From: Elusimicrobiota bacterium
Lineage (GTDB): Bacteria; Elusimicrobiota; UBA8919
Direction of reading: 5' to 3'
Length of the DNA stretch: 64,000 nucleotides
NCBI GenBank assembly: GCA_028718185.1
Contig: JAQUMH010000001.1
Location: forward strand, 31,186-95,185
Shown piece after piece: positions 14,789-55,237 of the stretch. How positions within the stretch are numbered: position 1 is the first letter of the stretch; each line of letters begins with the position of its first letter. Position numbers and translations under genes: made by a program. The notes beneath the pieces are model-generated. The model saw only the letters and a program-made list of their open reading frames with translations, had not been told where the DNA came from and did not search any database.

Positions 14789-17700
14789 CTATTTATCAGC
14801 CCAGTCTTTGGCGATTAAAATTGCTTGTTCCAATACTGTTTCGGTTGCTTTTTTCTGTTTATCAGGTGGATACCCATATTTTCTTAAAATTCTTTTTACC
14901 ATTACCCTCAAATTTGCCTGTATATTTTCTCTTATTGTCCAGTCAATAGTAACATTATTTCTCACTGTCTTTATCAGTTCCCTTGCAATTGTTCTCAAGA
15001 TTTCATCTCCAAGAACCTTAACTGCACTGTCATTTACTTCCAAAGCATCATAGAATGCAAGTTCATCTTCAGTTAAATTTAATAACTCACCCCGTTTATC
15101 AGCATCCCTCAACTTCTTTGCTAATTCAATGAGTTCTTCTATAACTCTTGCTGTTTCTATTGCCTTATTCTGATATTTCCGAATCGTCTTTTCCAGCATT
15201 TCCGCAAATGACCTGCCCTGTATTAGATTTCTTTTTGTCCTTATTTTTATTTCGTCATTCAGCAATTTTTTCAAAAGTTCAAACGCTAAATTTTTGTGCG
15301 GCATATTTTTTACTTCCGCCAAAAACTCATCCGAAAGAATTGAAATATCCGGTTTTTTAATCCCAGCTGCTTCAAATACATCAATCACTTTATCAGAAGT
15401 AATTGCTTTTGATATTATCTGTTTTATTGCCGTATCAAGTTCTTCTTCTGTTTTACCACCACCCACTTCAAACTTCGCAATTCTTGACCTTACCGCTTGA
15501 AAAAAACCTACATTGTCTCTAATCTCAAGTGCCTTTTCATTCGGGACGGCAAGGGCAAACGCCTTTGATAACTGCGAGACATAATTCAAAAATCTTTCTT
15601 TTCCCTTCTCTTTTTCCTTGCCTAATATAAATTCGGCCGCTTCAGCCAATATGCCCATCTTTTCTCTTACACCAACAGTGAAAAACTTCTTATAATCAAA
15701 TTTACCTGCCTCGCCAACAGGCGGGACGAACATGCCACAAACGATTTCGTATTTTTCAAGCATAACTGCAACTGCTTCTCTCTGGTCAAAAGTGGGCTTC
15801 CCTTCTCCGCCACTTTCTGTATAGATTGAAAGTGCTTCTTTCAAATCGGCTGCAATGCCTAAATAGTCAACCACGAGTCCACCGGGCTTATCTTTGAAAA
15901 CCCTGTTCACTCTTGCTATCGCCTGCATAAGACCGTGCCCGCGCATCGGCTTGTCAATATACATCGTATGCAAACAAGGAACATCAAATCCCGTAAGCCA
16001 CATATCTCTCACAATTGATAGCTTAAGCGGGTCGCTGTCATCTTTCATTCTGTTGCCTATTTCTCTGCGTCTCTGTTTATTTCTTATATGTTCCTGCCAA
16101 CCAACATCATCACTTGCAGAGCCGGTCATTATTATTTTAAGAAAACCTTTGTCATCGTCTTTGTGATACCAATCGGGACGGAGTTTTATAATCTCATTAT
16201 GCAGTTCAATACAAATACGCCTACTCATACAGACAATCATTCCTTTGCCATCAAGCACTTTTAGACGCTCTTCAAAATGTTCTACAATATCTTTTGCAAT
16301 CTGTTTAATCCTTTTTTCACTGCCAATGATTGCCTCAAGCCGAGCCCATCTTGTTTTTAACTTCTCTTTTTTCTTTACTTCTTCGAATTCGGTCACTTCT
16401 TCGAATTCAGGGTCAATTTTAGGTCGCTCTTCTGCTTTTAACTCAAGTTTAGCAAGACGGTTTTCATAAAATATTCTGACTGTGGCACCATCTTTAACTG
16501 CCTGCTCAATATCATAAACATCAATGTAATCGCCAAAAACTGCAATCGTATTCCTGTCAGTTTTTTCTATAGGCGTTCCGGTAAATCCTATAAATGAAGC
16601 ATTCGGCAATGCATCCCGCATATGCTTTGCGAAACCATCTATAAAATCATACTGACTTCTGTGTGCCTCATCTGCAATAACTACTATGTTTCGTCTTTCA
16701 GACAACAATTGGAAACGGTTTGCATTTTCTTCAGGGAAAAATTTTTGTATTGTTGTAAATACAACACCACCGGATGCAACTTTTAAATATTCTTTAAGTT
16801 CATCTCGTGTTTCTGCCTGTACCGGCTCTTGCCTTAAAAGTTCCTGACACCTGCAAAAAGTACCATACAATTGGTCATCTAAATCGTTTCTATCTGTAAG
16901 AACGACAATAGTCGGATTATCCATCCTAAGAACAAGTTTGCCGGTATAATATGCCATTATTAAACTTTTCCCTGAACCCTGAGTATGCCACACAACACCG
17001 CACCGTTTGTCGCCTTTCTTACTTGATGCTTTAATCGTTGATTCAACCGCCTTATTTACCGCATAATATTGGTGATATGCTGCTATCTTTTTGGAAGTTT
17101 TAATTTGCTCATTTTCAAAAACAATAAAATGTCTAATTAAATCAAGAAGAACTTTTTTATTCAGCATCCCTTTCAATAGCACTTCTATCTGCGGAACAGT
17201 TGCCGGTTCTTTTTCTGTGCCATCAATTGTTTTCCAAGGCAAAAACCTCTCCCAATCAGAAGTTATTGTCCCTGCTCTTGCTTCATTGCCATCACTTATT
17301 ATAAGGATTTCGTTGTAATTGAAAACGGAAGGTATTTGTGTTTTGTAGGTTTCAAATTGCTTGAATGCCGATTTTATAGTAGCGTTTTCATCAGCAGGAT
17401 TTTTTAATTCAATGACAACTAACGGCAAACCATTCACAAAAATAACAATATCGGGACGCCTGTTGTTATTATTTTCTATAACTGTAAATTGATTTACTGC
17501 TAAAAACTCATTATTGTTGATATTCTTAAAATCAAAAAGCCATACTTTATCACCAACAATTTTTCCCACCTTTTTATATTCAACATCAACACCGTTAACC
17601 AAGAGTTTATGGAAATTATGATTATTTACAATCAGGTTAGGGGTTTTGTCTCTCAATACTTTTTTAAGGACTTCTTCTTGGGCAGTTTTTGGAACCTGTG

Positions 17701-17890
17701 GATTTAACCTGTCAATTGCTTCCATTAACCGCTCAATCAAAACAGAATTGAAATAATCATCTCTTTCAGGTCTCGTGCCATCAACAGCAATATCCGGACC
17801 ATAAAGTGTCTTATATCCCAATTCTTTTAATATGTCCAATGATAACTGTTCAATTTCCGATTCGGTGATTATGTGTGGCATATTTTTCAA
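14789..17890 (-). CDS. hsdR: Type I restriction enzyme R subunit (HsdR)
   Basis: 1033 aa; N-terminal nuclease region, SF2 helicase motifs (TQGSGKS, DEAH-like [10 protein letters not shown]). Confidence 0.95.
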
Positions 17891-17893
17891 TGT

Positions 17894-18658
17894 TTATGAA
17901 ACTAATTCTTGCCTTATTGCTTCTCTCTCACTCCAAATTACTGGATTAACTCCATAATTAAACAGTGCTTCAATAACCGAAGGCATAGTTTTTTGTTCTG
18001 AATCATTTAAGAAAGCATAAGCTTTAGAATTAGTAGGTCTAACTTCCTTGGTATCAATCCAAGAAAAAGCAAGAGCTTGTGCAGTATCTTTATTGGGTCT
18101 ATTTATTGTTTGAATAATTCTTTCCGGTTGCCTTTTTGATGCAGGAATTACAAAGTCAAATAAATGGTCATAACCGCTTTTCCCAGTAAATTTAATCCTC
18201 GGAGTATATCTAATATCATTTATATTCATCCAAGAAGTAACATCTTCAAAAAACAAACTGGCAACCATAGGTGCAGCTAAATAAAATAAATCATTTATTG
18301 CTAACATAGCCTGTACCAAATTATGCTTTTTTAATGAAAAGTTTTCAGATGAAGCATGCAAAGTTAAAGATTTTTCTTGCATTTTAACGCCAAAACCGTT
18401 TAATGTTAATAGAAGAAGATCCTTGCGTTTTTTACTATCTAATTCACAGCCCGATTGCATAAGATCAGCAATGGTATAGCCATCATCTGTTAAAATATAA
18501 CCATTATTATCCCGCTTAACATATATTTGTAAATAATCATTGTGTCTATCCAAATAAGGAGTCGTTATTTCGACCCAATCTTCTACTTGACGTAAAGCTG
18601 TTTTATCTTTCAACCAATTTAAGTAATTATCCAAAAGCTTTTGTATTTCGTCTATCAT
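17894..18658 (-). CDS. Uncharacterised protein embedded in type I R-M operon (from memory resembles DUF1828/DUF1829-type proteins)
   Basis: 254-aa ORF; ATG overlaps stop of upstream 151-aa ORF (ATGA), and it ends 4 nt before hsdR start; no catalytic motif recognised. Confidence 0.5.
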
Positions 18659-19110
18659 GAAAATAACCCCCTCTCTATGTTCGGTGGTTCTATTATATTA
18701 CATAATATCATAAAATCGCTCAAGGTTTGCCATAAATCAGAAATATTTGGGAATCTGTCAATTGGCAAAGGTACTGCCCACTTATCACCAAATCCTTCAC
18801 GATAATAATGTAAATGTGGTGATGCTATTTCTTGCCCATCAGGATTCCTATGAGGCTGTCCACCAAAATCTAATCTAACAAGTATTACTACTTGTTGTGC
18901 ACGATTTTGATATGAACCTTTTAGTAAGTCAATTCTACCTCTGCTAATATCAAGCATAAAGTTCTCACGTTTGTTTACAGAAGTTATAGGAACGCGTATT
19001 TGTCCACCATATCCAGGGTATTCCCAACTTACATCATTGACTTTTACTTTTTCCATTGCTATCAAAGTATTCGCTTCGGTTTGAGGTAAATTAATTTCAG
19101 GCATTTGCAC
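18655..19110 (-). CDS. Uncharacterised protein embedded in type I R-M operon
   Basis: 151-aa ORF overlapping hsdS 3' end by 14 nt and coupled to the following 254-aa ORF; contains PHLHYYREG and HRNPDG segments of unknown significance. Confidence 0.5.
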
Positions 19111-20290
19111 TCCTTTTTATTCTTATCTTTCCTGACATTAGTTTTGGTAAAAGAGAATCACAAATATCGTTTAATTTTTTATTTTCTCGCAAATTCTCTA
19201 ATATTTGCTGCATGATAGGCTCAATTACCTTATGAAACTTTTTCATTATGAAATCATTTGGAACAACAATACTTATTCGCGCAAAATTTCCTGTATTAAG
19301 ATTCAATGTAGCTGTTCCCCCAAGTCCCATAGTTTTTATTTCTTCACTTTTGTTCAACATAGAAAAATACATAAAATATGGACTAATTTCTTTTTTACAA
19401 ATAATGCTATTTATTTGTTGATTTGTCTGACTAACTTCACTTGTAAGTGATACTAAACCTGGAGTAGCTATACAACTGACACAGACAGATAACGCAGATA
19501 AATATTTATTTTTTTGTAAATCAGCCCCTTGTTTTGAAAGTATTTTTTCTGTTTTAATTACAAAAACAAAATTACGCATATCAGGAATAGTAATGAACGG
19601 TATATCTGCTCCATAATTATCTCTATTTATAGTTGCAGGAGTTTTTCCGCAAATAATATCACCACAGTCTTTTATTTCTTTTTTCCCCCATCCATCAGGT
19701 AAACCATTTTTAAATTTTGTTTTTTCATAGTCGGGGAAACGGAAAGCAATAAACCACTCCTTGAATATTGCCTGAGCTATTGACTCAAGGGTTTTATTCA
19801 TCTGGTTATTTAGTTCTATCTTTTCATCAAGGTCAGAAAGAATTTTTGCAATCGCCCGCTGTTCATTGAACGATGGTATATGTTTTTTTATTTCATACAC
19901 GTAATCACGATTAAGTCCGGGAACTGCTGAATGACTATTCATTTCAGTAAGATTTAATGTTTTAAGAAAATAATACCAAAACAATATGTCGTTTTCTCCT
20001 TTTGTTTTTACGTAATATGTTGTATCAATAGGCCAAAAATCAGTTTTTGAAAATGTAACTTGTCCAACAGTGCCTTTCCTGCCAATAATAATTCCAGGTC
20101 CTTTTACAAGTGCTTCATTATGCTGACCAATAATACCATTTGAACCATAGACCGATATATCACCACCTTTTCTCTCTCTTGTTATAAGCCCATCACCATA
20201 AACTAACTCAATATTATTTCCAACAGATGATTCTTCCCATCCTTCGGGAATTGCACCAATTTCTGTTTGTTTGAATTTATTCTTTTCCAT
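19097..20290 (-). CDS. hsdS: Type I restriction-modification specificity subunit (HsdS)
   Basis: Two target-recognition domains separated by conserved spacer; ORF track begins at 20347 but likely start is the internal Met (MEKNKF...) at 20290, just after the HNH gene stop. Confidence 0.85.
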   Translation of the reverse strand: MEKNKFKQTEIGAIPEGWEESSVGNNIELVYGDGLITRERKGGDISVYGSNGIIGQHNEALVKGPGIIIGRKGTVGQVTFSKTDFWPIDTTYYVKTKGENDILFWYYFLKTLNLTEMNSHSAVPGLNRDYVYEIKKHIPSFNEQRAIAKILSDLDEKIELNNQMNKTLESIAQAIFKEWFIAFRFPDYEKTKFKNGLPDGWGKKEIKDCGDIICGKTPATINRDNYGADIPFITIPDMRNFVFVIKTEKILSKQGADLQKNKYLSALSVCVSCIATPGLVSLTSEVSQTNQQINSIICKKEISPYFMYFSMLNKSEEIKTMGLGGTATLNLNTGNFARISIVVPNDFIMKKFHKVIEPIMQQILENLRENKKLNDICDSLLPKLMSGKIRIKRSANA

Positions 20291-20297
20291 ATTGTAT

Positions 20298-20990
20298 TTA
20301 ATTAGTTGCGATTGTCTTACATTTTTTACAAAAACATCCCGGGTCATGAAAACCTATCTGCATAATAAGTTTGTCCCAGAACAGCATACCCCAGAAGTGA
20401 AATTTATTTAACTCGGGAATAATAATATATTTATAATCAAATACTGCTGGATACTGCCCTTTTGATGAGATATTACGTATATACTCAAACTCCAAATCAG
20501 GTCTTTGTCCTTCTGAGTAAATCTTGTTAATACGCGGTGTTCTATCAGGAAGAAACTGTCCGCATTCTTTAAAAAATAACCCTCTTGTAATTTTCCAAAC
20601 CACTCTCCAAACACGCTCGCCATTGAATCGTTTTAGTACTTTATTATATGGTAAAATAAGCCCTGACGGCCTTGTTTCAAATTCTTTAAAAACCATTTTG
20701 TGAAGACGACTACCTGCGGGACGCTTTCTTCTGCATACAATATCCTTCCAAATTTCGCTTCCTGTATCTGATTCCATTGTTAATGGAGCTATAGAATGAA
20801 CAAAATAGTCTTCATCTATCTGGTATGGTTCATGACATTTGCGATGAACCGGCAAAGTAAATAAATTTGGGGAATCTTTCTTCCTAACACGGGTCGCATA
20901 AAATTGTTTCGGAGGAACGTGGTCTTTATCTACTTTACCCGATAGCATATTACCGCACAAGTAACATATTTCTATTTCTTTTTTAGCCAT
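20298..20990 (-). CDS. HNH-motif endonuclease-like protein
   Basis: CYLCG...DKDHVPP...VHRKCH arrangement consistent with an HNH/zinc-finger nuclease core; C-terminal CFCKKCK; lies between yhcG-like gene and hsdS. Confidence 0.55.
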   Translation of the reverse strand: MAKKEIEICYLCGNMLSGKVDKDHVPPKQFYATRVRKKDSPNLFTLPVHRKCHEPYQIDEDYFVHSIAPLTMESDTGSEIWKDIVCRRKRPAGSRLHKMVFKEFETRPSGLILPYNKVLKRFNGERVWRVVWKITRGLFFKECGQFLPDRTPRINKIYSEGQRPDLEFEYIRNISSKGQYPAVFDYKYIIIPELNKFHFWGMLFWDKLIMQIGFHDPGCFCKKCKTIATN

Positions 20991-20992
20991 TG

Positions 20993-22132
20993 CTATTTTT
21001 TTATTTTGTTTGTGCTTTTACTCAACTCTTTCTCAATTTGTTTTATTGTTGGTAGATTCGATTTGAATTTCTTGGGTAAAGAATGTGTTAATTGATATTC
21101 AGAAACACCAATTGGCTTATGAATATCGCTTAAAGCATACTCAGCGACCACTTTATCTTTGGTTTTGCAGATAATTATTCCGACAGTCGGTTGGTCGAAT
21201 TCACTTCTCAACTGGCGGTCTACTGCAGTAATATAAAAATTCAATTTTCCGGCAAACTCCGGTTGAAATACCACAGTTTTTAGTTCTATCACGATATAAC
21301 AACGCAATTTAATATGATAAAAAAGCAGGTCTATGTAGAATTCACTTTCACCTACACGCAATGGAATTTGCCGTCCTACATAAGAAAAACCGGTTCCTAA
21401 TTCCAATAGAAACTTTGCAATATGCTCAATAAGAGCATTCTCCATGTCTTTTTCATTGTATTCTTCGGTTAACCTTAAAAAGTCAAAAATATAGGGGTCT
21501 TTGAGTGTTTGTTTGGCGAGGTCAGATTGGGGTTTAGGCAGTGTAAGAGAAAAGTTATTAACCGCCTTGCCTTCTCGTTTGAAAAGTCCCCATTCAATCT
21601 GGTGAACTAATACAGAGCGGCTCCAATTGTGCGTAATTGTTTTTTGAACATAATAAATTGCTTCTTTTATATTCTTACATTTTGTTATAATTGCGATGTT
21701 ATGACCCCAAGGTATCTGGGTGATTTGTGCAACGGCTTGTTGCACAAATTGTCCGACAGACTTTTGGATAATTCTGTTTATTGGCAATTGGGCAACAGCC
21801 TGTTGCCCAATTAAGCCAACAGGCTGTTGGCTTATCGCATTTCCCCGGCTATAAAACTGATACCATTGCTTGATATATTTAAGATTTCTAAGTGAGAATC
21901 CCTTCATATCCGAAAACTCTGCTGTTAAATCCTTGCTAAGCTGAATTAGAAAACCGCCACCCCATTTGGTGTTTGCCTGTTTAGCCACAATATCTGCACC
22001 AAGCTCCCAATAAAAGGAGAGCATTTCTGAATTAACTTTTACCGCTGCTTTAATCTGGGCGTTACGGACTTTTGCTTTTAAATCAGCAAGCCAAACTTTG
22101 TATTCCTTATCAAATACTAAATTAGATTTCAT
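20993..22132 (-). CDS. YhcG-like PD-(D/E)xK nuclease (DUF1016 family)
   Basis: QIPWGHN N-terminal motif and C-terminal [10 protein letters not shown]...IVIELK PD-(D/E)xK core; overlaps hsdM stop by 11 nt. Confidence 0.8.
21725..21835 (-). repeat. Three in-frame near-perfect palindromes inside the yhcG-like coding sequence
   Basis: TTGTGCAACGG/CTTGTTGCACAA (21725-21747), AATTGGGCAACAG-C-CTGTTGCCCAATT (21786-21812), AAGCCAACAG-G-CTGTTGGCTT (21814-21834); encode repeated QQAVAQ peptide. Confidence 0.6.
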
Positions 22133-23729
22133 ATCCCAGTCCTTTTAAATTTTTCTTTATTTCTTTTTCAAGTTCTTCGGATTTTTCAAACTGTTCTGAA
22201 AGTTCTTTGGTAAGTCGTTTCATTTTTTCATTAAACTTTTCTTTATCTTCTTCCACTTCTTCGGTGCCTACATATCTACCGGGTGTCAAAATATAACCCT
22301 GTGATTTTATTTCTTCAAGTGTTGCCGATTTGCAATAACCTTTTTCATCTTTATACTTGCCCGCCGACGTCCCAGTGGCGGGTTTACCTTCTCCCCGCCA
22401 TGCATGATATGTATCAGCAATTCTATTTATCTCTTCTTCAGTTAATTCCCTGTGCCTGCGGTCTATCATTACGCCCATTTTCCGAGCATCAATGAAAAGA
22501 ACTTTGCCCCTTCTGTCTTTGAATTTGTGATTTTTCTTATCGCGAGCAATAAACCAAAGACAGGCGGGTATCATTACATTGTAGAAAAGTTGTGATGGCA
22601 AAGAAACCATACAATCCACTATGTCTGACTCAAGCATATTTTTTCTTATTTCACCTTCATTTGACTGGTTAGAAGACATAGAACCGTTTGCTAATACAAA
22701 GCCTGCAATACCTTTTGGCGATAGATGATAAACAAAATGCTGAACCCATGCGAAGTTGGCATTACCTGTCGGAGGGACACCGTATTTCCATCTCACATCA
22801 TCTCTTAATTGCTCGCCCTTCCAATCACTGTCATTAAATGGTGGATTGGCTAATATAAAATCTGCTTTTAAATCTTTATGTTCATCTTTTAAGAAACTGC
22901 CTTCATTATTCCACATTATATTTGCATCTATACCACGGATTGCTAAGTTCATTTTACAGAGACGCCATGTGGTTTGATTGGATTCCTGTCCATTGATAGC
23001 AATATCACCTAATTTACCACCGTGTGCTTTTACAAATTTTTCGCTTTGAACGAACATACCACCGGAACCACAACACGGGTCAAAAATACGACCTTTATAT
23101 GGCTCCATCATTTCCACAAGTAATTGCACTATGCTCCGCGGAGTATAAAATTGCCCGCCTCGTTTACCTTCCGAATCTGCAAACTGCCCTAAGAAATACT
23201 CATAAACTCTACCCAAAATATCTTTACTGCGATTTTCGTAATCTCCTAAACTAATTGTACCTATAAGGTCTATTAGTTCACCAAGACGCTGTTTATCAAG
23301 TTTAGGGTCTGCATAATTTTTAGGAAGAACACCCTTAAGGGTTGGATTTTCCTTTTCTATAACATACATTGCGTCATCTATGATTTTACCTATTGTGGGT
23401 TGTTTTGCATTTTTCTGTAGGCGTGACCAGCGGGCTTTTTCCGGGACATAAAACACGTTTACGGCTTTATATTCGTCTCTGTCTTCAATTGTCTCATAAC
23501 GCACTTCGGGTTCTTTTATATATTGATTGCTTTTTGGATTAGAAACTTCTTTTACAAGTATTTGATAATGTTCTTCGAATGCGTCGGAGATATACTTAAG
23601 AAAAATCAATCCTAATACAATATGTTTATACTCAGCAGCATCCATATTGTTCCGCAGTTTATCAGCTGCTTTCCACAGTTTTTCCTCAAAACCAAGATTT
23701 CCACCATTTGAATTATCTTCTTTTTTCAT
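22122..23729 (-). CDS. hsdM: Type I restriction-modification DNA methyltransferase subunit (HsdM)
   Basis: 535 aa; N6-adenine MTase motifs including NPPFN and SAM-binding region. Confidence 0.95.
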
Positions 23730-23967: not shown

Positions 23968-26358
23968 TTACCTTAATTTTGTTTGGAATTTATTTTCAAG
24001 TTGTAAAACAATCTTTTTTACAACCACATCCACTTCTTCATCTTTTAATGTCCTGTCTGATAATCTAAATCTTATTCTAAAAGTAAGTGATTTATATCCT
24101 TCCTTAATTTGTTTTCCGGTATAAAAATCACATACGCTCACATCAACAGGAATATTAGACGCTTTTTCTTTTATAGCATTACATATTTCTACTGCAGGAT
24201 ACTGTTGAGATACTTCAATTGAAATATCCCTTTCTATAAACGGATATTTGGGAATATGTACGTATTTCCTCTCAAAACCGGCAGAACAAATAAGCTTATC
24301 TAAATCCAACTCAAAAACATATAAACAATCATTTTTAATATCTTGTTTTTTTATTACTTCAACATTGAGCAATCCAAAACTTCCGACATTATTGTTTTCT
24401 ATTAAAATATCTGCTGACTGATTTTGCTGAAACATTTCTTTGTCAGATTTTTTATACTCCCATGACTTAACCCCAATTTCCCTGAATAGTCTCTCAATAA
24501 AACCTTTTAAAAAATAAAAATCTACTGCAACAGCTTTTTCTTTCCACCAGTCATATTCCGAACCTAAAATACATCCTGAAAAAAATGTTTTTTCTTCCTC
24601 CCCAAAAACCTTTCCAATCTCAAATATTCTTATATCTTTATTACCTCTATTAATATTTCTTACCACAGTTTTTACCAGTCTTGGGATAAGCGATATTGAC
24701 AAAAACGGTTCTTCTAAAGATATAGGATTGGCAACTTTTCTTGCGCCTTCTGCCAACGTAAAAACAGCAAAGTCATCTTTAGATATAAAATTATAATTAA
24801 TCGTTTCATAAAATCCCACTGACACTGCAGTATTTCTTACTTTATCTATAACCTTTTCTGATTTATTTAAAACAATATCTGTTCTGAATGTTATTTTATC
24901 GCTTGTTTTTATTTTATCATAACCAAAAATACGAACGATTTCTTCTATTAAATCAAAATCTGTTTTGACATCGTTCCTGTGAGAAGGAACGGTTACAGAA
25001 AGTAAATAGGGGACAGGAAGCCCGCCACTAAACATTGGCGAGGCAGGCAAGAAGCAAGAAAAACCAAGGCGGGATAGAATATCCCTTATTGCATCAATTG
25101 AAATATCTATGCCTAATATTTTATTTACCCTGTCGGCATCAAGTTCTATTTTAATTAATTCTTTTTTATTTGAATATTTGTCAATCATACCGCCGGAAAT
25201 TTCGCCGCTGCAATTTTTTTTAATCATTTCCGATGCTATCATTCCTATATTTGAAATATTTTCCATATCGACCCCTCTTATAAATCTATAAGACGAATCT
25301 GTGGAAATTCCAAGTTTTTTTGAGGTTTTGCGTATAGAAATAGGATTAAAACATGCTACTTCTAAAAATACATTTTTAGTATTTTCAGAAACGGCTGTAG
25401 GCTCACCACCGATTACACCTGCAATAGCAATAGGGTCTTTTTCATCGGCAATCACAAGCATTTCTTCATCAAGACTATATTCCTTATTATCAAGTGCTAA
25501 AATCTTCTCATCCTTTTTAGCATTTCTGATAACAATTTTTCCCTTTATTTTTTCAATATCAAATGCATGCAGCGGTTGTCCATATTCAAATAGAATATAA
25601 TTTGTAATATCAACAACATTATTTATTGTTCTTAAACCACAACCTTCTATACGGTCAATAAGCCATTGCGGAGATTTTCCTACTTTTATATTTTTTATAA
25701 TAAATCCAACATATCGAGGACAATCTTTCGTATTTTCTACAACTACGGGAAAAATATTCTCTACTTTAATATCATAATCCCCTATCTCTTTCTTTAATTT
25801 TTTATTTAGTATTGCGGAAATCTCCCTTGCAATTCCAAAAACCGATAAACAATCACCCCTGTTTATTGTAACTTCAGTTTCAACATAAGAATCCTTATTC
25901 AGATATTCATTAATCGGGACACCAAGATTTACATCCGGAGGCAGAAGCAAAATCCCGGATGAATCATTACCAATTTTAAGTTCAGATTCTGAACAAAGCA
26001 TACCTTCTGATTCAACCCCGCGAAGCACAGCTTTTTTTATTTCACCTGCTGGCAACTTTGCCCCAATTTTTGCCAGCGGTACAATATCATCAACTTTCAT
26101 ATTTTTAGCACCGCAAACAATTTTGTAATTCTTCTGACCGTCGGTAACACTGCATATTGAAAGCTTATCTGCATTAGGATGTTTTTCTATTGATAAGATT
26201 TTTACAACAACAACATTTCTATCAATTGAAACACATTTAACAGGTTTAGTTTCAATCCCTGACATTGTAAGAAGGGAAGATAATTTTTCGGCATCAATAT
26301 CAACATCAATAAAATCCGACAGCCATTTTAATGAAATTATCATAATAGTATTATACAA
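23968..26358 (-). CDS. pheT: Phenylalanine--tRNA ligase beta subunit
   Basis: 796 aa; N-terminal tRNA-binding domain (LKWLSDFIDVD...), B3/4 and B5 regions. Confidence 0.95.
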   Translation of the reverse strand: MYNTIMIISLKWLSDFIDVDIDAEKLSSLLTMSGIETKPVKCVSIDRNVVVVKILSIEKHPNADKLSICSVTDGQKNYKIVCGAKNMKVDDIVPLAKIGAKLPAGEIKKAVLRGVESEGMLCSESELKIGNDSSGILLLPPDVNLGVPINEYLNKDSYVETEVTINRGDCLSVFGIAREISAILNKKLKKEIGDYDIKVENIFPVVVENTKDCPRYVGFIIKNIKVGKSPQWLIDRIEGCGLRTINNVVDITNYILFEYGQPLHAFDIEKIKGKIVIRNAKKDEKILALDNKEYSLDEEMLVIADEKDPIAIAGVIGGEPTAVSENTKNVFLEVACFNPISIRKTSKKLGISTDSSYRFIRGVDMENISNIGMIASEMIKKNCSGEISGGMIDKYSNKKELIKIELDADRVNKILGIDISIDAIRDILSRLGFSCFLPASPMFSGGLPVPYLLSVTVPSHRNDVKTDFDLIEEIVRIFGYDKIKTSDKITFRTDIVLNKSEKVIDKVRNTAVSVGFYETINYNFISKDDFAVFTLAEGARKVANPISLEEPFLSISLIPRLVKTVVRNINRGNKDIRIFEIGKVFGEEEKTFFSGCILGSEYDWWKEKAVAVDFYFLKGFIERLFREIGVKSWEYKKSDKEMFQQNQSADILIENNNVGSFGLLNVEVIKKQDIKNDCLYVFELDLDKLICSAGFERKYVHIPKYPFIERDISIEVSQQYPAVEICNAIKEKASNIPVDVSVCDFYTGKQIKEGYKSLTFRIRFRLSDRTLKDEEVDVVVKKIVLQLENKFQTKLR

Positions 26359-26377: not shown

Positions 26378-26411
26378 TAAAAAAAATTCGCTTAATCCCA
26401 TTTAAGCGAAT
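26378..26411 (-). terminator. Rho-independent terminator-like hairpin (minus strand)
   Basis: ATTCGCTTAA-6 nt loop-TTAAGCGAAT perfect 10-bp stem followed on the minus strand by an 8-nt U run; lies between the 103-aa ORF and pheT. Confidence 0.55.
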
Positions 26412-26457
26412 TTCTATATTATTATCCGTTATTTTGTTTTTTAACAAAAGATATTTA

Positions 26458-26769
26458 TTATCTTGGTATACTTGCTAACTGGTGTTTGACTTCAGTTATT
26501 ATCCTGGCAACAAAACTTCCTATAAGCGGCATATCTACCATTTTATGTAATATAAGAATTATTAACGTTACAACAATAGCACCAATAATAGTCATGCCAA
26601 GAAGCAACCCTACTCCTCTAGCAACACCTATCAAAAAGTTAGCCCATATAAGCTTCCATGGTTTTTTTACAAAATCAAGTATATCCCTGAATTCACATGT
26701 AACCATGTTTTTCACCTGTTTTGAAATGTGCTCATATTGTTGGTCTGTATCTTCTTCTTTATCCGGCAT
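26458..26769 (-). CDS. Small hypothetical membrane protein
   Basis: 103 aa with one or two predicted hydrophobic helices; no recognised family. Confidence 0.4.
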   Translation of the reverse strand: MPDKEEDTDQQYEHISKQVKNMVTCEFRDILDFVKKPWKLIWANFLIGVARGVGLLLGMTIIGAIVVTLIILILHKMVDMPLIGSFVARIITEVKHQLASIPR

Positions 26770-53509: not shown

Positions 53510-55237
53510 TTATGCTAGACTCGTTATAATTTCATCCAATGCTGCGCCTGCGGGAACCATCGGAAAAACATTCTCTTCTTCCTCAACTAAAAAATCCATA
53601 ACTACCGTTTTTTCTATCTTTAACGCTTTTATAAGAGTATTTTCAACATCTTCCTTTTTTGTAACTCTTATACCAACAGCGCCATATGCTTCGGCAAGTT
53701 TTACAAAATCAGGTATCATCAATGGTGACCTCTTAAAAGAAAGTTCTGAAGCAAGACACCCGTTTGGTTTTGCTAAACATACAGCAGAATATCTTTTCTT
53801 ATAAAACATTTCCTGCCATTGACGAACCATTCCCAAACAATTGTTATTTAAAATAACAATTTTCACGTTTATATTATTCAGGACTGCGGTTGCAAGCTCC
53901 TGTATATTCATTTGTATAGAACCGTCGCCTGCAATATCAATAACCGTTTTTTTAGGATTAGCTATTTTAGCTCCGATAGCCGCAGGAAAACCATAGCCCA
54001 TCGTCCCAAGCCCGCCGCTTGACAAAAAATGCCGGGGATACTTTGGTTTATAGAACTGTGCAGACCACATCTGGTTCTGACCCACTTCCGTAACAACAAT
54101 CGCTTCGCCTTTCGTTATCTCTGAAATTTTATCGATAATATATTGCGGACGAAGTTTATTATCTTTTTTATATGAAAATGGATTTGCTTTTTGCCATTCT
54201 GATATTTTTTTAAGCCAATCTTTATTGTTTTTCTTATTCACATACTTTAAAAGTTCAGTAATAACATTTTTTGCATCACCGACAATAGGTATATCAACCA
54301 TAACATTTTTAGAAATTGAGGTTGGGTCGATATCAATATGGATTATTTTGGCTTTTGGTGCAAAAGCAGAAAGCTTTCCCGTTACCCTGTCATCAAATCT
54401 TGCACCGATTGCTATTATTAAATCGCAATTCTGGAATGCGTGGTTAGCTGCATAATTTCCATGCATGCCCGGCATATAAAGATTCAATGGATGATCCGGA
54501 GGAAAACATCCTATTGCCATTAGAGTTGTAGTAACCGGCGTATGTATTTTTTCAGCAAGTTTCAAAAGTTCGGTTGAAGCATCTGATGAAACTATTCCGC
54601 CGCCTACATACAACAATGGCTGTTTAGCAGAGTTTATCATATCTGCAACTTTCTTTATTTGTCCGATATGACCCGAATAAACCGGTTTATATGAACGTAT
54701 ATCTACTTTTTCAGGCCAGACAAACTCTGTAGTTGCTCTTTGAATATCAGCGGGAATATCTACAAGAACCGGTCCCGGTCTGCCGGTTTTTGCAATATAA
54801 AACGCTTCACGTATTGTTCTTGCTAAATCTTTAACATCTTTTACTAGAAAATTATGTTTAGTAACAGGTCTGGTTATACCTGTTGTATCAGCTTCTTGAA
54901 AAGCATCATTTCCTATAAGTGTTGTTACTACCTGTCCGGTAAATGCAACAACCGGAATTGAATCCATGTTTGCTGTTGCAAGCGCAGTAGTTAGATTTGC
55001 TGCTCCGGGCCCGCTAGTTGCAATACAAACACCAACATCACCTGTAGATCTGGCATACCCGTCAGCCATATGCCCGGCACCCTGTTCATGTCGTGTCAAA
55101 ACAAACTTTATTTTATCCCTTGCGTCAAATATTTTATCAAAAATCGGAAGCACCTGTCCACCCGGAATTCCAAATAACACTTTGACATTTTCTTTTAAAA
55201 GACATTCAATAAATATTTCAGCCCCGGTTTTTATCAT
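53510..55237 (-). CDS. ilvB: Acetolactate synthase large subunit
   Basis: TPP-enzyme motifs, 575 aa. Confidence 0.95.
   Translation of the reverse strand: MIKTGAEIFIECLLKENVKVLFGIPGGQVLPIFDKIFDARDKIKFVLTRHEQGAGHMADGYARSTGDVGVCIATSGPGAANLTTALATANMDSIPVVAFTGQVVTTLIGNDAFQEADTTGITRPVTKHNFLVKDVKDLARTIREAFYIAKTGRPGPVLVDIPADIQRATTEFVWPEKVDIRSYKPVYSGHIGQIKKVADMINSAKQPLLYVGGGIVSSDASTELLKLAEKIHTPVTTTLMAIGCFPPDHPLNLYMPGMHGNYAANHAFQNCDLIIAIGARFDDRVTGKLSAFAPKAKIIHIDIDPTSISKNVMVDIPIVGDAKNVITELLKYVNKKNNKDWLKKISEWQKANPFSYKKDNKLRPQYIIDKISEITKGEAIVVTEVGQNQMWSAQFYKPKYPRHFLSSGGLGTMGYGFPAAIGAKIANPKKTVIDIAGDGSIQMNIQELATAVLNNINVKIVILNNNCLGMVRQWQEMFYKKRYSAVCLAKPNGCLASELSFKRSPLMIPDFVKLAEAYGAVGIRVTKKEDVENTLIKALKIEKTVVMDFLVEEEENVFPMVPAGAALDEIITSLA

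Follow-up and report, generated by a model that had tools for sequence, protein, structure and literature searches.

Short in-frame tandem repeats that lie between two protein modules and vary in copy number are found in the central conserved region of type I HsdS subunits of the EcoR124 type; these repeats are reportedly direct, 12 bp long and shown to affect the length of the recognition-site spacer. In-frame selfish palindromic insertions are said to have been described by Ogata et al. in 2000 and 2002, and Rickettsia palindromic elements (RPEs) represent palindromic DNA tolerated in frame within unstructured parts of proteins, the gene being left intact. In the part of PMC6649704 that deals with them, RPEs are described as about 100-150 nt long, spread within a single genome over intergenic regions and numerous unrelated genes, and losing repeat identity with time. 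PARCEL repeats, which are linked with the mobile gene pool, are coding repeats that vary in tandem number and show dyad symmetry; their units of 25 residues (75 nt) are amphipathic, are matched by DUF285/TIGR02167 and occur mostly in membrane or surface proteins, the dyad is imperfect and its phase variable, and palindromes that follow one another in tandem can, when alike in sequence, adopt alternative extended structures.

Quasi-palindrome correction was reportedly described by Ripley in 1982 and by the Lovett laboratory. For perfect inverted repeats that are conserved in the non-coding DNA of Proteobacteria, template switching is the accepted explanation; these repeats keep perfect arms over time, change in both arms, are strictly Watson-Crick paired and require only hairpin formation in replication, coding repeats having been deliberately set aside in that study (Genome Biol Evol 2018, PMC5941160). 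Perfect inverted repeats with both arms coding occur in functional mitochondrial genes of Nematomorpha; they reach 284 bp, affect many genes of one organelle genome, are gained and lost between species and show a preferred codon phase for pairing, and the authors prefer arm conversion such as template switching, and possibly a parasitic character, over a function (PMC6649704).

Here we describe a palindromic unit in a gene of the DUF1016/YhcG family, located in a window of 64 kb, the term window denoting the whole stretch of DNA analysed. The unit resembles the template-switch-conserved repeats in the features listed above, whereas it is coding, phase-locked, orthologous through a protein family of many phyla and tandemly multiplied. 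Unlike the Nematomorpha repeats, it measures 27 nt and occupies one homologous site of one gene family in bacteria, archaeal MAGs, plasmids and phages. It shares tandem dyad-symmetric coding repeats of variable number with PARCEL, but is near-perfect, phase-locked and confined to DUF1016 nucleases, its length is 9 codons instead of 25 residues and Pfam returns only DUF1016_N and YhcG_C. In contrast to RPEs, it is family-specific, actively kept perfect and non-dispersed, both in the window and over 80 loci, and only the first three units of the window gene are predicted to be unstructured in-frame insertions. Compared with the HsdS repeats, the units are palindromic and their host protein is a nuclease. 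A literature search found no prior description of a family-wide coding palindrome.

Palindromic units in the YhcG-like gene

The relevant features of the window are the following.

20993-22132, minus strand: gene for a YhcG-like PD-(D/E)XK nuclease of 379 aa (ORF, Pfam, PADLOC), carrying the palindrome array
21575-22081: DUF1016_N, residues 18-186 (Pfam E = 3.6e-37, 127.9 bits, cut-off 32.8)
21050-21514: YhcG_C, residues 207-361 (Pfam E = 4.8e-66, 221.9 bits, cut-off 32.5)
21810-21836, no strand assigned: unit 1, ISQQPVGLI, with perfect 11-nt arms at 21812-21834 and a 1-nt centre at 21823
21812-21834: palindrome of unit 1, TAAGCCAACAG g CTGTTGGCTTA, 11-nt arms
21786-21812, no strand assigned: unit 2, IGQQAVAQL, palindrome AATTGGGCAACAG c CTGTTGCCCAATT, perfect 13-nt arms, centre 21799, 12/12 pairs
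21747-21773, no strand assigned: unit 3, decayed, IIQKSVGQF, AATTATCCAAAA gtc TGTCGGACAATT, centre 21760, 9/12 pairs
21723-21749, no strand assigned: unit 4, FVQQAVAQI, palindrome ATTTGTGCAAC ggctt GTTGCACAAAT, 11-nt arms, 5-nt centre, centre 21736, 11/12 pairs
21746-21841, minus strand: codons for residues 98-129 (units 1-3), with predicted pLDDT < 50 and no predicted secondary structure
21698-21712, minus strand: PWGHN codons, residues 141-145, the anchor for the homologous unit position across the family

The protein belongs to the DUF1016/YhcG family, as it has DUF1016_N and, C-terminal to it, the YhcG_C PDDEXK domain, each scoring above its Pfam gathering threshold. It shows 29% identity with E. 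coli YhcG over 359 aligned residues (E = 6e-51), and a 100%-identical protein is on record from an Elusimicrobia MAG. The PADLOC profile PDC-S02, which designates a phage defence candidate only, is matched end to end (E = 2.2e-154), and a literature search on PDC-S02 function found no functional study. In its type I R-M operon the gene is flanked by hsdM and hsdS.

Alignment A2 shows no variation at residues P141, W142, G143, H144 and N145. A PDB sequence search returned no solved relative. Order and disorder were read from an AlphaFold2 model built on a 60-sequence alignment, which has a mean pLDDT of only 63 and was used solely for this purpose. According to this model and to the Pfam profile, units 1-3 probably encode a disordered loop inserted relative to the profile, while a helix predicted at residues 127-137 (block pLDDT about 72) suggests that unit 4 encodes the helix leading into PWGHN.

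The initial annotation had reported three in-frame palindromes in this gene and a tandem QQAVAQ-type peptide repeat just before PWGHN. Both are present, the palindromes with slightly different edges (21723-21749, 21786-21812 and 21812-21834) and the repeat as FVQQAVAQI, IGQQAVAQL and ISQQPVGLI. If arms of 10 nt or more and loops of up to 6 nt are required, the window contains five perfect palindromes, three of them within 112 bp of this gene, as compared with 0-3 in total in the mononucleotide-shuffled window. The sequence CAACAGNCTGTTG was found nowhere else in the window, with 0.10 matches expected.

Units 1 and 2 have a self-complementary AATT in common and their centres are 24 nt apart; unit 1 holds 10/12 pairs in the family register (k=2-13), and both gave p < 0.001 against a null model of synonymous codons. 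Unit 3 is a fourth copy, missed by the initial annotation, between the palindromes of units 2 and 4, and a direct-repeat family (D1) ties 21725-21772 to 21788-21835. All four units share one register, the centre falling on base 1 of the codon that follows the second Q. The unit is 27 nt or 9 codons long and directly precedes PWGHN; its 12-bp stem encloses a loop of 3 nt, and its centre coincides with codon position 1.

Secondary-structure prediction for 21715-21842 returned three discrete hairpins on both DNA strands (-35.4 and -34.3 kcal/mol, z = -8.2 each). A search for terminator-like sites in 21400-22200 found none, the stems ending in AATT followed by coding sequence, and promoter and terminator scans gave nothing over shuffles.

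Occurrence of the unit in the family

Units were located across homologues by motif-free scans. A unit with at least 10/12 pairs was found in 74/82 homologue genes, the background elsewhere in the same genes being 7e-5 per in-phase centre. Of 80 homologue genes, 64 contain a perfect palindrome whose arms measure 9-17 nt, longer where flanking codons permit; nearly all of these lie at gene nt 245-460 with the centre on codon position 1. Phase 0 was observed for 97/98 units. E. coli K-12 yhcG, at 29% identity, contains three units encoding different peptides (e.g. KIWQTLSAKS), and the terminal unit, corresponding to unit 4 of the window, is orthologous across the whole family, E. coli included. 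The E. coli ncRNA G0-10703, considered as a candidate, belongs to the yhcG 5' UTR and not to the palindromes.

The unit also occurs in most viral and prophage copies, down to 25% identity, and in all eight sampled plasmid copies, among them those of Rhodococcus and Cryobacterium at 59% GC and those of Citrobacter and Klebsiella with unrelated peptides (ILVSLIREL, IVATLSRQL), as well as in archaeal MAGs and in high-GC Actinobacteria, the latter by way of disfavoured codons. All 35 single-unit genes hold at least 9/12 pairs while surplus units decay, as does unit 3 of the window; decay in an intact gene was seen in one clade only, Obscuribacterales (L046, L053).

Over 80 loci the site had 3.0 units per kb, as compared with 0.044 per kb in the remaining sequence, where roughly half of the matches correspond to a second DUF1016 paralogue or to remnants of DUF1016 genes. 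Some genes carry an extra unit in their N-terminal tail (L063, L069, L075, L040), and solitary units lie just outside some others. The unit is a hallmark of the DUF1016/YhcG nuclease family, and the three palindromes of the window together with the decayed fourth are its tandem copies.

Conservation of complementarity at the DNA level

A synonymous-codon null that keeps the peptide and draws codons at the frequencies of the respective locus gives 6.16/13 pairs; 10.58/13 were observed, and 54/69 units gave p <= 0.01. Covariation analysis identified double-sided changes at 12/12 pairs, with 214 compensatory cells against 58 in shuffles. Paired cells amounted to 94.5% versus 28-42% with the partner slid, and as the units of alignment A1 were picked for pairing its percent-paired figure is biased, the unbiased test being the synonymous-codon null. 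By position, the paired fraction was 0.79-0.99 for k=2-13, while the innermost pair reached 0.51 and positions past k=13 about 0.33.

The initial annotation had proposed that the palindromes would be incidental if homologues showed the same residues without palindromic DNA. The opposite was found, homologues being palindromic even where their residues differ, with the excess over the synonymous null reported above. Since the palindrome keeps the same spot and codon phase despite a changed peptide, it is the DNA itself and not the protein that is kept palindromic. A remnant unit containing an in-frame TAA is still 12/12 paired at three loci.

Glutamine codons opposite T in the stem were CAA in 87 cases and CAG in none, while elsewhere in those genes CAG is the commoner codon (417, as compared with 326 CAA). 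This exclusion of wobble pairs places the constraint on DNA and not on the sense RNA. In addition, G.U-type mismatches were not more frequent than A.C-type mismatches in either of two scans (14 vs 18 and 74 vs 111). We conclude that complementarity is kept at the DNA level by strict Watson-Crick pairing, whatever the peptide or the host codon usage.

E. coli alleles include a fully compensated 3-bp swap (GTG/CAC vs CGC/GCG) and also segregate single uncompensated polymorphisms in the arms. Between single-unit genes only 80-89% identical overall, the 27-nt unit is 96-100% identical.

Copy number variation and rearrangements

Among 120 close homologues the linker measures 31-72 aa and changes in steps of 8 or 13 codons, and in the window protein 169 residues align to 136 positions of the Pfam DUF1016_N profile; units 1-3 are therefore in-frame expansions. 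The suggestion of an in-frame insertion made in the initial annotation was correct in this respect, but the inserted copies are those of a family-native unit and, as units occur almost only in or beside DUF1016 genes, not of a foreign dispersed element. Phase variation, also suggested, is not supported: intact genes differ by whole in-frame units, and the sole out-of-frame change seen is an 80-nt deletion that takes out units 2-3 in E. coli O111, where the gene is annotated as a pseudogene.

The arrays are hotspots of divergence and rearrangement. Identity between E. coli K-12 and JML285 is 92-100% outside nt 220-430 and falls to 38-75% within this segment. The mosaic pairs L049/L056 and L063/L075 switch identity just 3' of the array, and a block shared by L046 and L053 stops exactly at the edge of a unit. 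In these two loci a non-coding remnant unit and the adjoining 12 nt are identical, while the neighbouring spacer shows, by eye, an identity of only about 60%. Just downstream of four genes, the unit region recurs as inverted remnants. The coincidence of breakpoints, deletion, inverted remnants and shared-block edge with units in several lineages lends circumstantial support to the earlier proposal of a recombination site.

In E. coli, one cassette edge lies at the conserved GFS motif and not at a unit, and a truncation at nt 235 with IS629 is likewise not at a unit. Another allele is truncated at nt 406, within the 3' arm of unit 3, next to a small 'transposase' ORF for which a Pfam search gave no match; as this truncation is probably a single inherited event, it was not counted as independent evidence.

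Programmed inversion was considered and rejected, as the inverted remnants, at most about 30-40 codons, are too short for alternative domains and as a NAR 2023 survey lists DUF1016 solely as adjacent to hsdS or type II targets (PMC9881135).

Discussion

Hairpin-templated arm-to-arm correction combined with slippage, to which we assign an even chance of being correct, would account for both the maintenance and the multiplication of the unit. The unit would fold into a hairpin on single-stranded DNA at the replication fork, and intramolecular template switching (quasi-palindrome correction) would copy one arm from the other, so that a mutation in one arm would either be reverted or be passed to its partner. 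The expected outcome is perfect arms, frozen synonymous sites and apparent covariation, with no hairpin function required. The terminal unit could not be deleted because it would encode the helix before PWGHN, and the palindrome would thus be trapped at that position. Slippage or mis-alignment at the hairpins would gain or lose whole units in 24- or 39-nt steps, and the extra units would be tolerated because they would encode a disordered loop. The same hairpins may be the source of the divergence, deletions, inverted duplications and recombination junctions, their product being a hypervariable cassette between the N-terminal and nuclease domains.

Templated correction would need a rate of template switching well above the point-mutation rate, a figure that comes from E. 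coli reporter studies. Both signatures of template switching, excess complementarity at freely variable sites and both-arm changes between orthologous repeats, were found here, and arm conversion has been proposed for the coding palindromes of Nematomorpha mitochondria (PMC6649704). Some points run counter to templated correction. A pure mutational drive should irreversibly lose the palindrome in some lineages, and one clade only has let it decay in an intact gene. Purifying selection on a functional hairpin would equally explain why the palindrome is retained in proteins of only 25-29% identity and in spite of high-GC codon bias. Templated correction would also not by itself account for the concentration in this one family, comparable coding palindromes being rare in the other genes of these loci, and the L046/L053 remnant looks like conservation of sequence, beyond pairing alone.

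It is possible, if rather unlikely, that the family retains the unit for some function as a selected cis-acting DNA hairpin or cruciform. This could be a built-in recombination site exchanging N-terminal modules or unit number, a mark of the cassette boundary, or a structured DNA sensed by the encoded PD-(D/E)XK nuclease or by the replication/repair machinery. The near-universal retention at one site in such different replicons and hosts, the persistence of pairing in every single-unit gene while surplus units decay, and the strict Watson-Crick pairing on both strands are in agreement with selection, as are the junctions at units (the E. coli cassette at nt 220-430, L049/L056, L063/L075 and the L046/L053 block) and the inverted remnants 3' of four genes. 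Moreover, the 27 bp of the frozen unit are about the minimum length for efficient homologous recombination in E. coli. However, such a function is hypothetical, the intact genes of L046 and L053 lack a good palindrome, and uncompensated mismatches segregate in E. coli. Arms of 9-17 nt extending where flanking codons allow are what conversion would give, and junctions favour conserved stretches anyway, the E. coli edge at the GFS motif being an example. Templated correction predicts all the structural features equally; synonymous-site rates, mismatch positions and arm-end extension are expected to be the same from selection and from templated correction. That a hairpin or cruciform acting in cis was selected specifically as part of diversifying or controlling YhcG-family defence nucleases is an unlikely, still tentative proposal.

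A role of the hairpins in mRNA, either as an inter-domain translation pause, in processing or stability of the hsdM-yhcG-hsdS transcript, or in masking an internal start, is quite improbable. The sense RNA of 21715-21842 does fold well (-49.6 kcal/mol, z = -6.2), the hairpins are placed at a domain boundary and the pairing covaries. However, selection on RNA would leave G.U near-neutral, and CAG, which would form G.U, is absent from the stem, so that this reading is largely refuted by the wobble test. The predicted RNA fold also mixes the arms of units 1 and 2 instead of forming discrete units, and no Rfam family exceeded its threshold, a permissive search yielding chance hits below it, the best being DapZ with 28.3 bits against a gathering score of 56. 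Finally, as E. coli yhcG adjoins the fimbrial yhc genes and the nan operon and lies in no R-M operon, an operon-specific role is unlikely.

We regard as very improbable that the units are a miniature mobile palindromic element inserted in frame, similar to the Rickettsia elements. Units 1-3 are additional to the Pfam profile and fall in a predicted disordered loop, copy number differs between close relatives, and additional units are found in N-terminal tails and just outside genes. Nevertheless, such an element should be dispersed, whereas in the window the unit occurs in this gene only and the outside matches over the 80 loci are sparse and for about half DUF1016-derived; the terminal unit is orthologous family-wide, and it has neither an associated transposase nor a target-site signature.

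Hardly any weight can be given to the palindromes being core sites of a recombinase, or operators to which a dimeric protein, for instance a regulator, would bind. A 27-bp dyad with an unconstrained 3-bp centre does resemble two 12-bp half-sites, and its AATT ends are highly conserved. Yet, in our own reading of the alignments, these ends are explicable by conserved Ile, Gln/Glu/Lys and Leu/Phe codons together with pairing, and the half-sites differ within one gene (AAGCCAACA, TTGGGCAACA and TTTGTGCAACA in the window, three different ones in E. coli), each pairing only with itself. The sequence-specific protein-binding site suggested by the initial annotation is therefore unlikely, because the units within a gene differ and still stay self-complementary. 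Crossover regions of serine and tyrosine recombinases measure 2 bp or 6-8 bp, which the odd centre does not fit, and DUF1016 is merely a neighbour of the targets in the inversion survey cited above.

The idea that the palindromes arise incidentally from codon usage and the QQxVxQ peptide repeat is already refuted, as the partial self-complementarity of first and second codon positions in I-x-Q-Q-x-V-x-Q-L yields about 6 of 13 pairs under the null, well short of those observed, and as palindromy persists with unrelated peptides, in high-GC genomes and in the stop-codon remnant.

Inverted repeats seldom survive in coding sequence, and here one 27-nt palindrome persists at one site and in one phase across a horizontally mobile family. 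Both the varying length of these genes and their hypervariable cassette are accounted for by the array, which also marks frequent rearrangement breakpoints. If arm-to-arm templated correction is the cause, the unit would be the cleanest natural example in coding sequence over deep time known to us, and E. coli yhcG, because it has three units and natural compensated and uncompensated alleles, would provide a ready experimental system. It would also call for caution in covariation-based RNA discovery and in codon models, because conversion at the DNA level leaves synonymous sites frozen and looks like a structure under selection. Should it be the hairpin that is selected, the finding would bear directly on the role of DUF1016 genes in type I R-M and other defence loci, and bacteria, archaea, plasmids and phages would share a protein family whose coding sequence itself contains a conserved, functional DNA structure.

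The YhcG-like gene and its palindromes

The gene under study belongs to a type I restriction-modification operon (14789-23729, minus strand) with several embedded genes:

22122-23729, minus strand: hsdM, its 3' end overlapped by the YhcG-like gene
20993-22132, minus strand: YhcG-like gene, 379 aa, Pfam DUF1016_N and YhcG_C, PADLOC PDC-S02
20298-20990, minus strand: unannotated ORF of 230 aa, between the nuclease gene and hsdS
19097-20347, minus strand: hsdS
18655-19110, minus strand: PDC-M24A, PADLOC candidate
17894-18658, minus strand: PDC-M24B, PADLOC candidate
14789-17890, minus strand: hsdR

PDC-S02 is a class of phage-defence candidates, and the 379-aa protein is identical to one recorded from an Elusimicrobia MAG. 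The 230-aa ORF, which at its 3' end runs 50 nt into hsdS, returned no Pfam or PADLOC match; inspected by eye, its N-terminal sequence (CYLCGN...DKDHVPPK...HRKCH) resembles the motif of an HNH or zinc-finger nuclease.

The initial annotation had described three in-frame palindromes within the YhcG-like gene, and these were confirmed at 21723-21834:

21723-21749: perfect palindrome, arms 11 nt, centre 5 nt
21786-21812: perfect palindrome, arms 13 nt, centre 1 nt
21812-21834: perfect palindrome, arms 11 nt, centre 1 nt

They encode the peptides ISQQPVGLI, IGQQAVAQL and FVQQAVAQI just before PWGHN, and a fourth, decayed copy (IIQKSVGQF, 9/12 pairs) between the second and third in coding order slightly extends the tandem arrangement. 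The whole 64-kb window (34% G+C) contained only five perfect palindromes with arms of 10 nt or longer, against 0-3 in total after shuffling, and the core CAACAGNCTGTTG was found nowhere else in the window (0.10 matches expected). When 21715-21842 was folded as single-stranded DNA, each strand returned three separate hairpins (z = -8.2). The centre of every window palindrome is base 1 of the codon following the second Q; in this register the third codon position faces the second position of the opposite arm, so that palindromy hinges on synonymous choices. An RNA fold prediction of the same region paired the arms of units 1 and 2 together.

Elsewhere in the window, a perfect palindrome at 26384-26413 (AAATTCGCTTAA tcccat TTAAGCGAATTT, arms 12 nt, loop 6 nt), unrelated in sequence to the YhcG units, sits in the gap between the minus-strand ORFs 23968-26358 and 26458-26769 and could be a terminator or operator. 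An AT-rich perfect palindrome with 11-nt arms occurs at 53839-53861 (AATTGTTATTT a AAATAACAATT).

Conservation of the DNA palindrome beyond the peptide

Homologous genes (80 from GTDB genomes, 44-75% identity) were collected from Bacteroidota, Verrucomicrobiota, Acidobacteriota, Chloroflexota, Planctomycetota, Thermodesulfobacteriota, Methanothrix, Nanohaloarchaea and others. The window register was again palindromic in these genes with different sequences, as in Emticicia (AAATTCGCCAACAA g TTGTTGGCGAATTT), Pontibacter (AATTAGTCCCACAA c TTGTGGGACTAATT) and a Verrucomicrobia MAG (CAATTGTGCCGCAG c CTGCGGCACAATTG). Of 13 possible pairs, 10.58 were matched in the observed units. A synonymous null, in which the peptide was kept constant and codons were resampled by each locus's own usage, gave 6.16, and p was <= 0.01 in 54/69 units. 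The palindromes are therefore not incidental, and the DNA palindrome itself is conserved, not the peptide alone.

A motif-free scan recovered perfect palindromes (arms 9-17 nt) in 64/80 genes; nearly all fell within gene nt 245-460, with codon position 1 at the centre. The best unit had at least 10/12 pairs in 74/82 genes, a level whose chance at in-phase centres elsewhere in the same genes is 7e-5. Pairing frequency was 0.79-0.99 at arm positions 2-13, fell to chance at the innermost pair (0.51) and was about 0.33 past position 13, which sets the unit at 27 nt, with a stem of 12 bp and a loop of 3 nt. Across 88 aligned units, each of the 12 pairs had changed on both sides (214 cells vs 58 in shuffles) and sliding the partner lowered pairing from 94.5% to 28-42%; as these units were selected for pairing, the synonymous-codon null is the unbiased test. 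The palindromy is thus phase-locked at the DNA level and covaries across the family.

Units 24 nt apart share a self-complementary AATT. In two homologue loci (L003 and L007, both centred at gene coordinate 321) a third palindrome is centred on the AATT common to two similar adjacent units, so a tandem array can take alternative, longer fold-backs.

Repeat array in the protein family

Among 120 close homologues (64-75% identity), the stretch from the conserved W-Y-x-F-Y to PWGHN consists of arrayed [QK]Q-x-V-x-[QL] units, of which 0-4 are strict copies. The GFS-to-PWGH distance ranged over 31-72 aa with modes at 31, 39, 52, 60 and 68, in steps of 8 or 13 codons; copy number thus changes in frame. 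The Pfam alignment matches 136 profile positions to 169 residues of the protein in the window. The AlphaFold2 model, whose mean pLDDT was only 63, placed residues 98-129 (units 1-3) below pLDDT 50 and without secondary structure, and predicted the last unit as a helix (residues 127-137) running into PWGHN. The length steps, the surplus residues and the low-pLDDT loop together show the extra units to be in-frame expansions coding for a probably disordered loop.

Occurrence in E. coli, plasmids, viruses and paralogues

E. coli K-12 yhcG (locus L081, 12828-13955; NC_000913.3 3367827-3368954) shares 29% identity with the window protein, and neither QQxVxQ nor PWGHN is present in it. Three 27-nt units were found in the homologous place and phase, centred at gene nt 316, 355 and 394 and encoding EIHQTMSGEL, GIPQTPSAEF and KIWQTLSAKS, the last with 15-nt arms (AAAGATTTGGCAGAC gct GTCTGCCAAATCTTT). 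The finding is real and more general than the initial annotation could see, namely a family-wide coding DNA palindrome that includes the K-12 gene.

Viral and prophage copies also carried units, one at 25% identity, as did 8/8 plasmid copies sampled (Legionella, Rhodococcus, Cryobacterium, Burkholderia, Paraburkholderia, Parabacteroides, Citrobacter and Klebsiella). The Rhodococcus and Cryobacterium units use ATT, CAA and TTG despite 59% G+C, while those of Citrobacter (ILVSLIREL, AATTCTCGTATC act GATACGAGAATT) and Klebsiella (IVATLSRQL, AATTGTCGCGAC act GTCGCGACAATT) encode other peptides. An Epsilonproteobacteria MAG (L014, 424-1431) has two DUF1016 paralogues in the same orientation, separated by about 300 nt, the divergent upstream one bearing its own perfect unit with a different peptide, IVNAVRSQL. 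Intact genes with a decayed unit (7/12 pairs) were confined to an Obscuribacterales clade (L046 and L053).

Polymorphism, rearrangement and remnants

In related single-unit genes the 27 nt were 96-100% identical against 80-89% for the genes, hence synonymous sites are frozen; multi-unit arrays diverged faster than their flanks. A yhcG match was present in 4,465/5,426 E. coli genomes and covered at least 80% of the gene in only 3,349, leaving 1,116 of the 4,465 without such coverage. K-12 and JML285 are 92-100% identical at nt 1-247 and 398-1128 and 38-75% identical at about nt 220-430, a stretch comprising the array and about 60 nt upstream. Unit 1 is perfect in O111 and most alleles sampled (Arg codon), shows one A.C mismatch in K-12 from the His/Arg difference (His codon), and carries a fully compensated 3-bp swap in JML285. 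Single changes without compensation segregate as well, and unit 3 does not vary. O111-type alleles, annotated as frameshifted, have lost 80 nt spanning units 2-3. A widespread truncated allele (L083, 3001-3802, E. coli Ec387; H26-H29) stops at nt 406, within the 3' arm of unit 3; the 101-aa ORF that comes after it carries a transposase annotation and has no Pfam match. In L121, a different allele, IS629 cuts the gene short at nt 235. In two mosaic pairs (L049/L056 and L063/L075), identity rises from near random to about 97% just 3' of the array. The locus is thus locally hypervariable and rearranged.

In one subclade, four genes carry an extra in-frame unit in the N-terminal tail ahead of DUF1016_N:

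L063, centre 2986
L069, centre 2968
L075, centre 2968
L040, centres 590 and 635

The extra stretch, for example MAAKKKSISRKSPIVQQGVAQLKNIPSGY, resembles a unit and IPWGH relic fused to a complete gene. Four Chloroflexota and Obscuribacterales loci carry short, inverted remnants from the middle of yhcG (the unit region), 60-190 nt downstream of a yhcG-like gene that is either intact or decayed; on the opposite strand these remnants read EF.QQ.AAQLLWG:

L047, centre 1675
L038, centres 1395-1437
L046, centre 4188
L053, centre 2724

In L047 the remnant unit and the one inside the gene are almost the same in sequence, so that two copies flank the nuclease domain, and a remnant unit with an in-frame TAA is still 12/12 paired. 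A 1,345-nt block common to the two Obscuribacterales MAGs, L046 (2857-4201) and L053, has its edge exactly at the outer edge of this TAA-containing downstream unit; the unit and 12 nt upstream are identical between the two loci, and the adjacent spacer is about 60% identical by eye. In L053 (1397-2984), 63 nt of the block's upstream edge recur about 185 nt past the unit and may be a direct repeat flanking a cassette.

Mechanism of maintenance

The most likely explanation, to which we give about an even chance, is that each unit would form a hairpin on single-stranded DNA during replication and that one arm would be templated by the other through intramolecular template switching, the quasi-palindrome mechanism. 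A third-position change would either be undone or be transferred to a second position and eliminated there, freezing synonymous sites. The terminal unit would be trapped, since it encodes a helix of the domain and cannot be lost, while slippage at hairpins would multiply units inside the tolerant loop. Template switching predicts arms that are perfect Watson-Crick complements, a loop free to vary, frozen synonymous sites, occasional compensated multi-base swaps, persistence in a non-coding remnant, and arms that lengthen where flanking codons permit (observed 9-17 nt). The mechanism is established: it has been invoked to explain why inverted repeats are conserved in the non-coding DNA of Proteobacteria (PMC5941160), and again for palindromes within the coding sequences of Nematomorpha mitochondria (PMC6649704).

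The main rival, possible but less probable, is that the hairpin is selected as a cis-acting DNA element, serving for instance in recombination or as the boundary of a cassette. In its favour are the near-universal retention, the tendency of each gene to keep one good unit or more as its surplus copies decay, the junctions that coincide with units and the scarcity of similar coding palindromes elsewhere; both it and templated correction predict the patterns seen.

A role of the hairpins in mRNA appears improbable. Opposite T, CAA forms a Watson-Crick pair and CAG a G.U wobble in mRNA; stem Gln codons in this position were CAA 87 times and CAG never, against 417 CAG and 326 CAA in the rest of the same genes. 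G.U-type mismatches were no commoner than A.C-type ones (14 vs 18; 74 vs 111 under a symmetric selection criterion). As G.U would be near-neutral under selection on RNA structure, these counts place the constraint on DNA, with both strands equivalent. The unit region gave no Rfam hit above threshold and no promoter or terminator signal above chance.

We regard a dispersed mobile element as very unlikely, and identity with a Rickettsia-type element was rejected because the dispersal tested for was not found in the window or in 80 homologue loci. A protein operator is slightly more doubtful still, and a coding artefact is scarcely credible given the excess of pairs with the peptide fixed.

Comparison with known systems

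The closest working analogue would be an inverted repeat kept by template switching; nearest in appearance are the Nematomorpha mitochondrial coding palindromes and the dyad-symmetric PARCEL tandem repeats. Identity with PARCELs was rejected on unit size and HMM mismatch. Unlike all of these systems, YhcG units are at once short, near-perfect, locked to one codon phase and orthologous at one site in a single protein family, whether from bacteria, archaeal MAGs, plasmids or phages. No prior description was found in literature searches on DUF1016, YhcG, coding or intragenic palindromes and quasi-palindromes. A family-wide coding palindrome is surprising to a specialist, while its parsimonious mechanism is already known, and the question is directly testable in E. 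coli.
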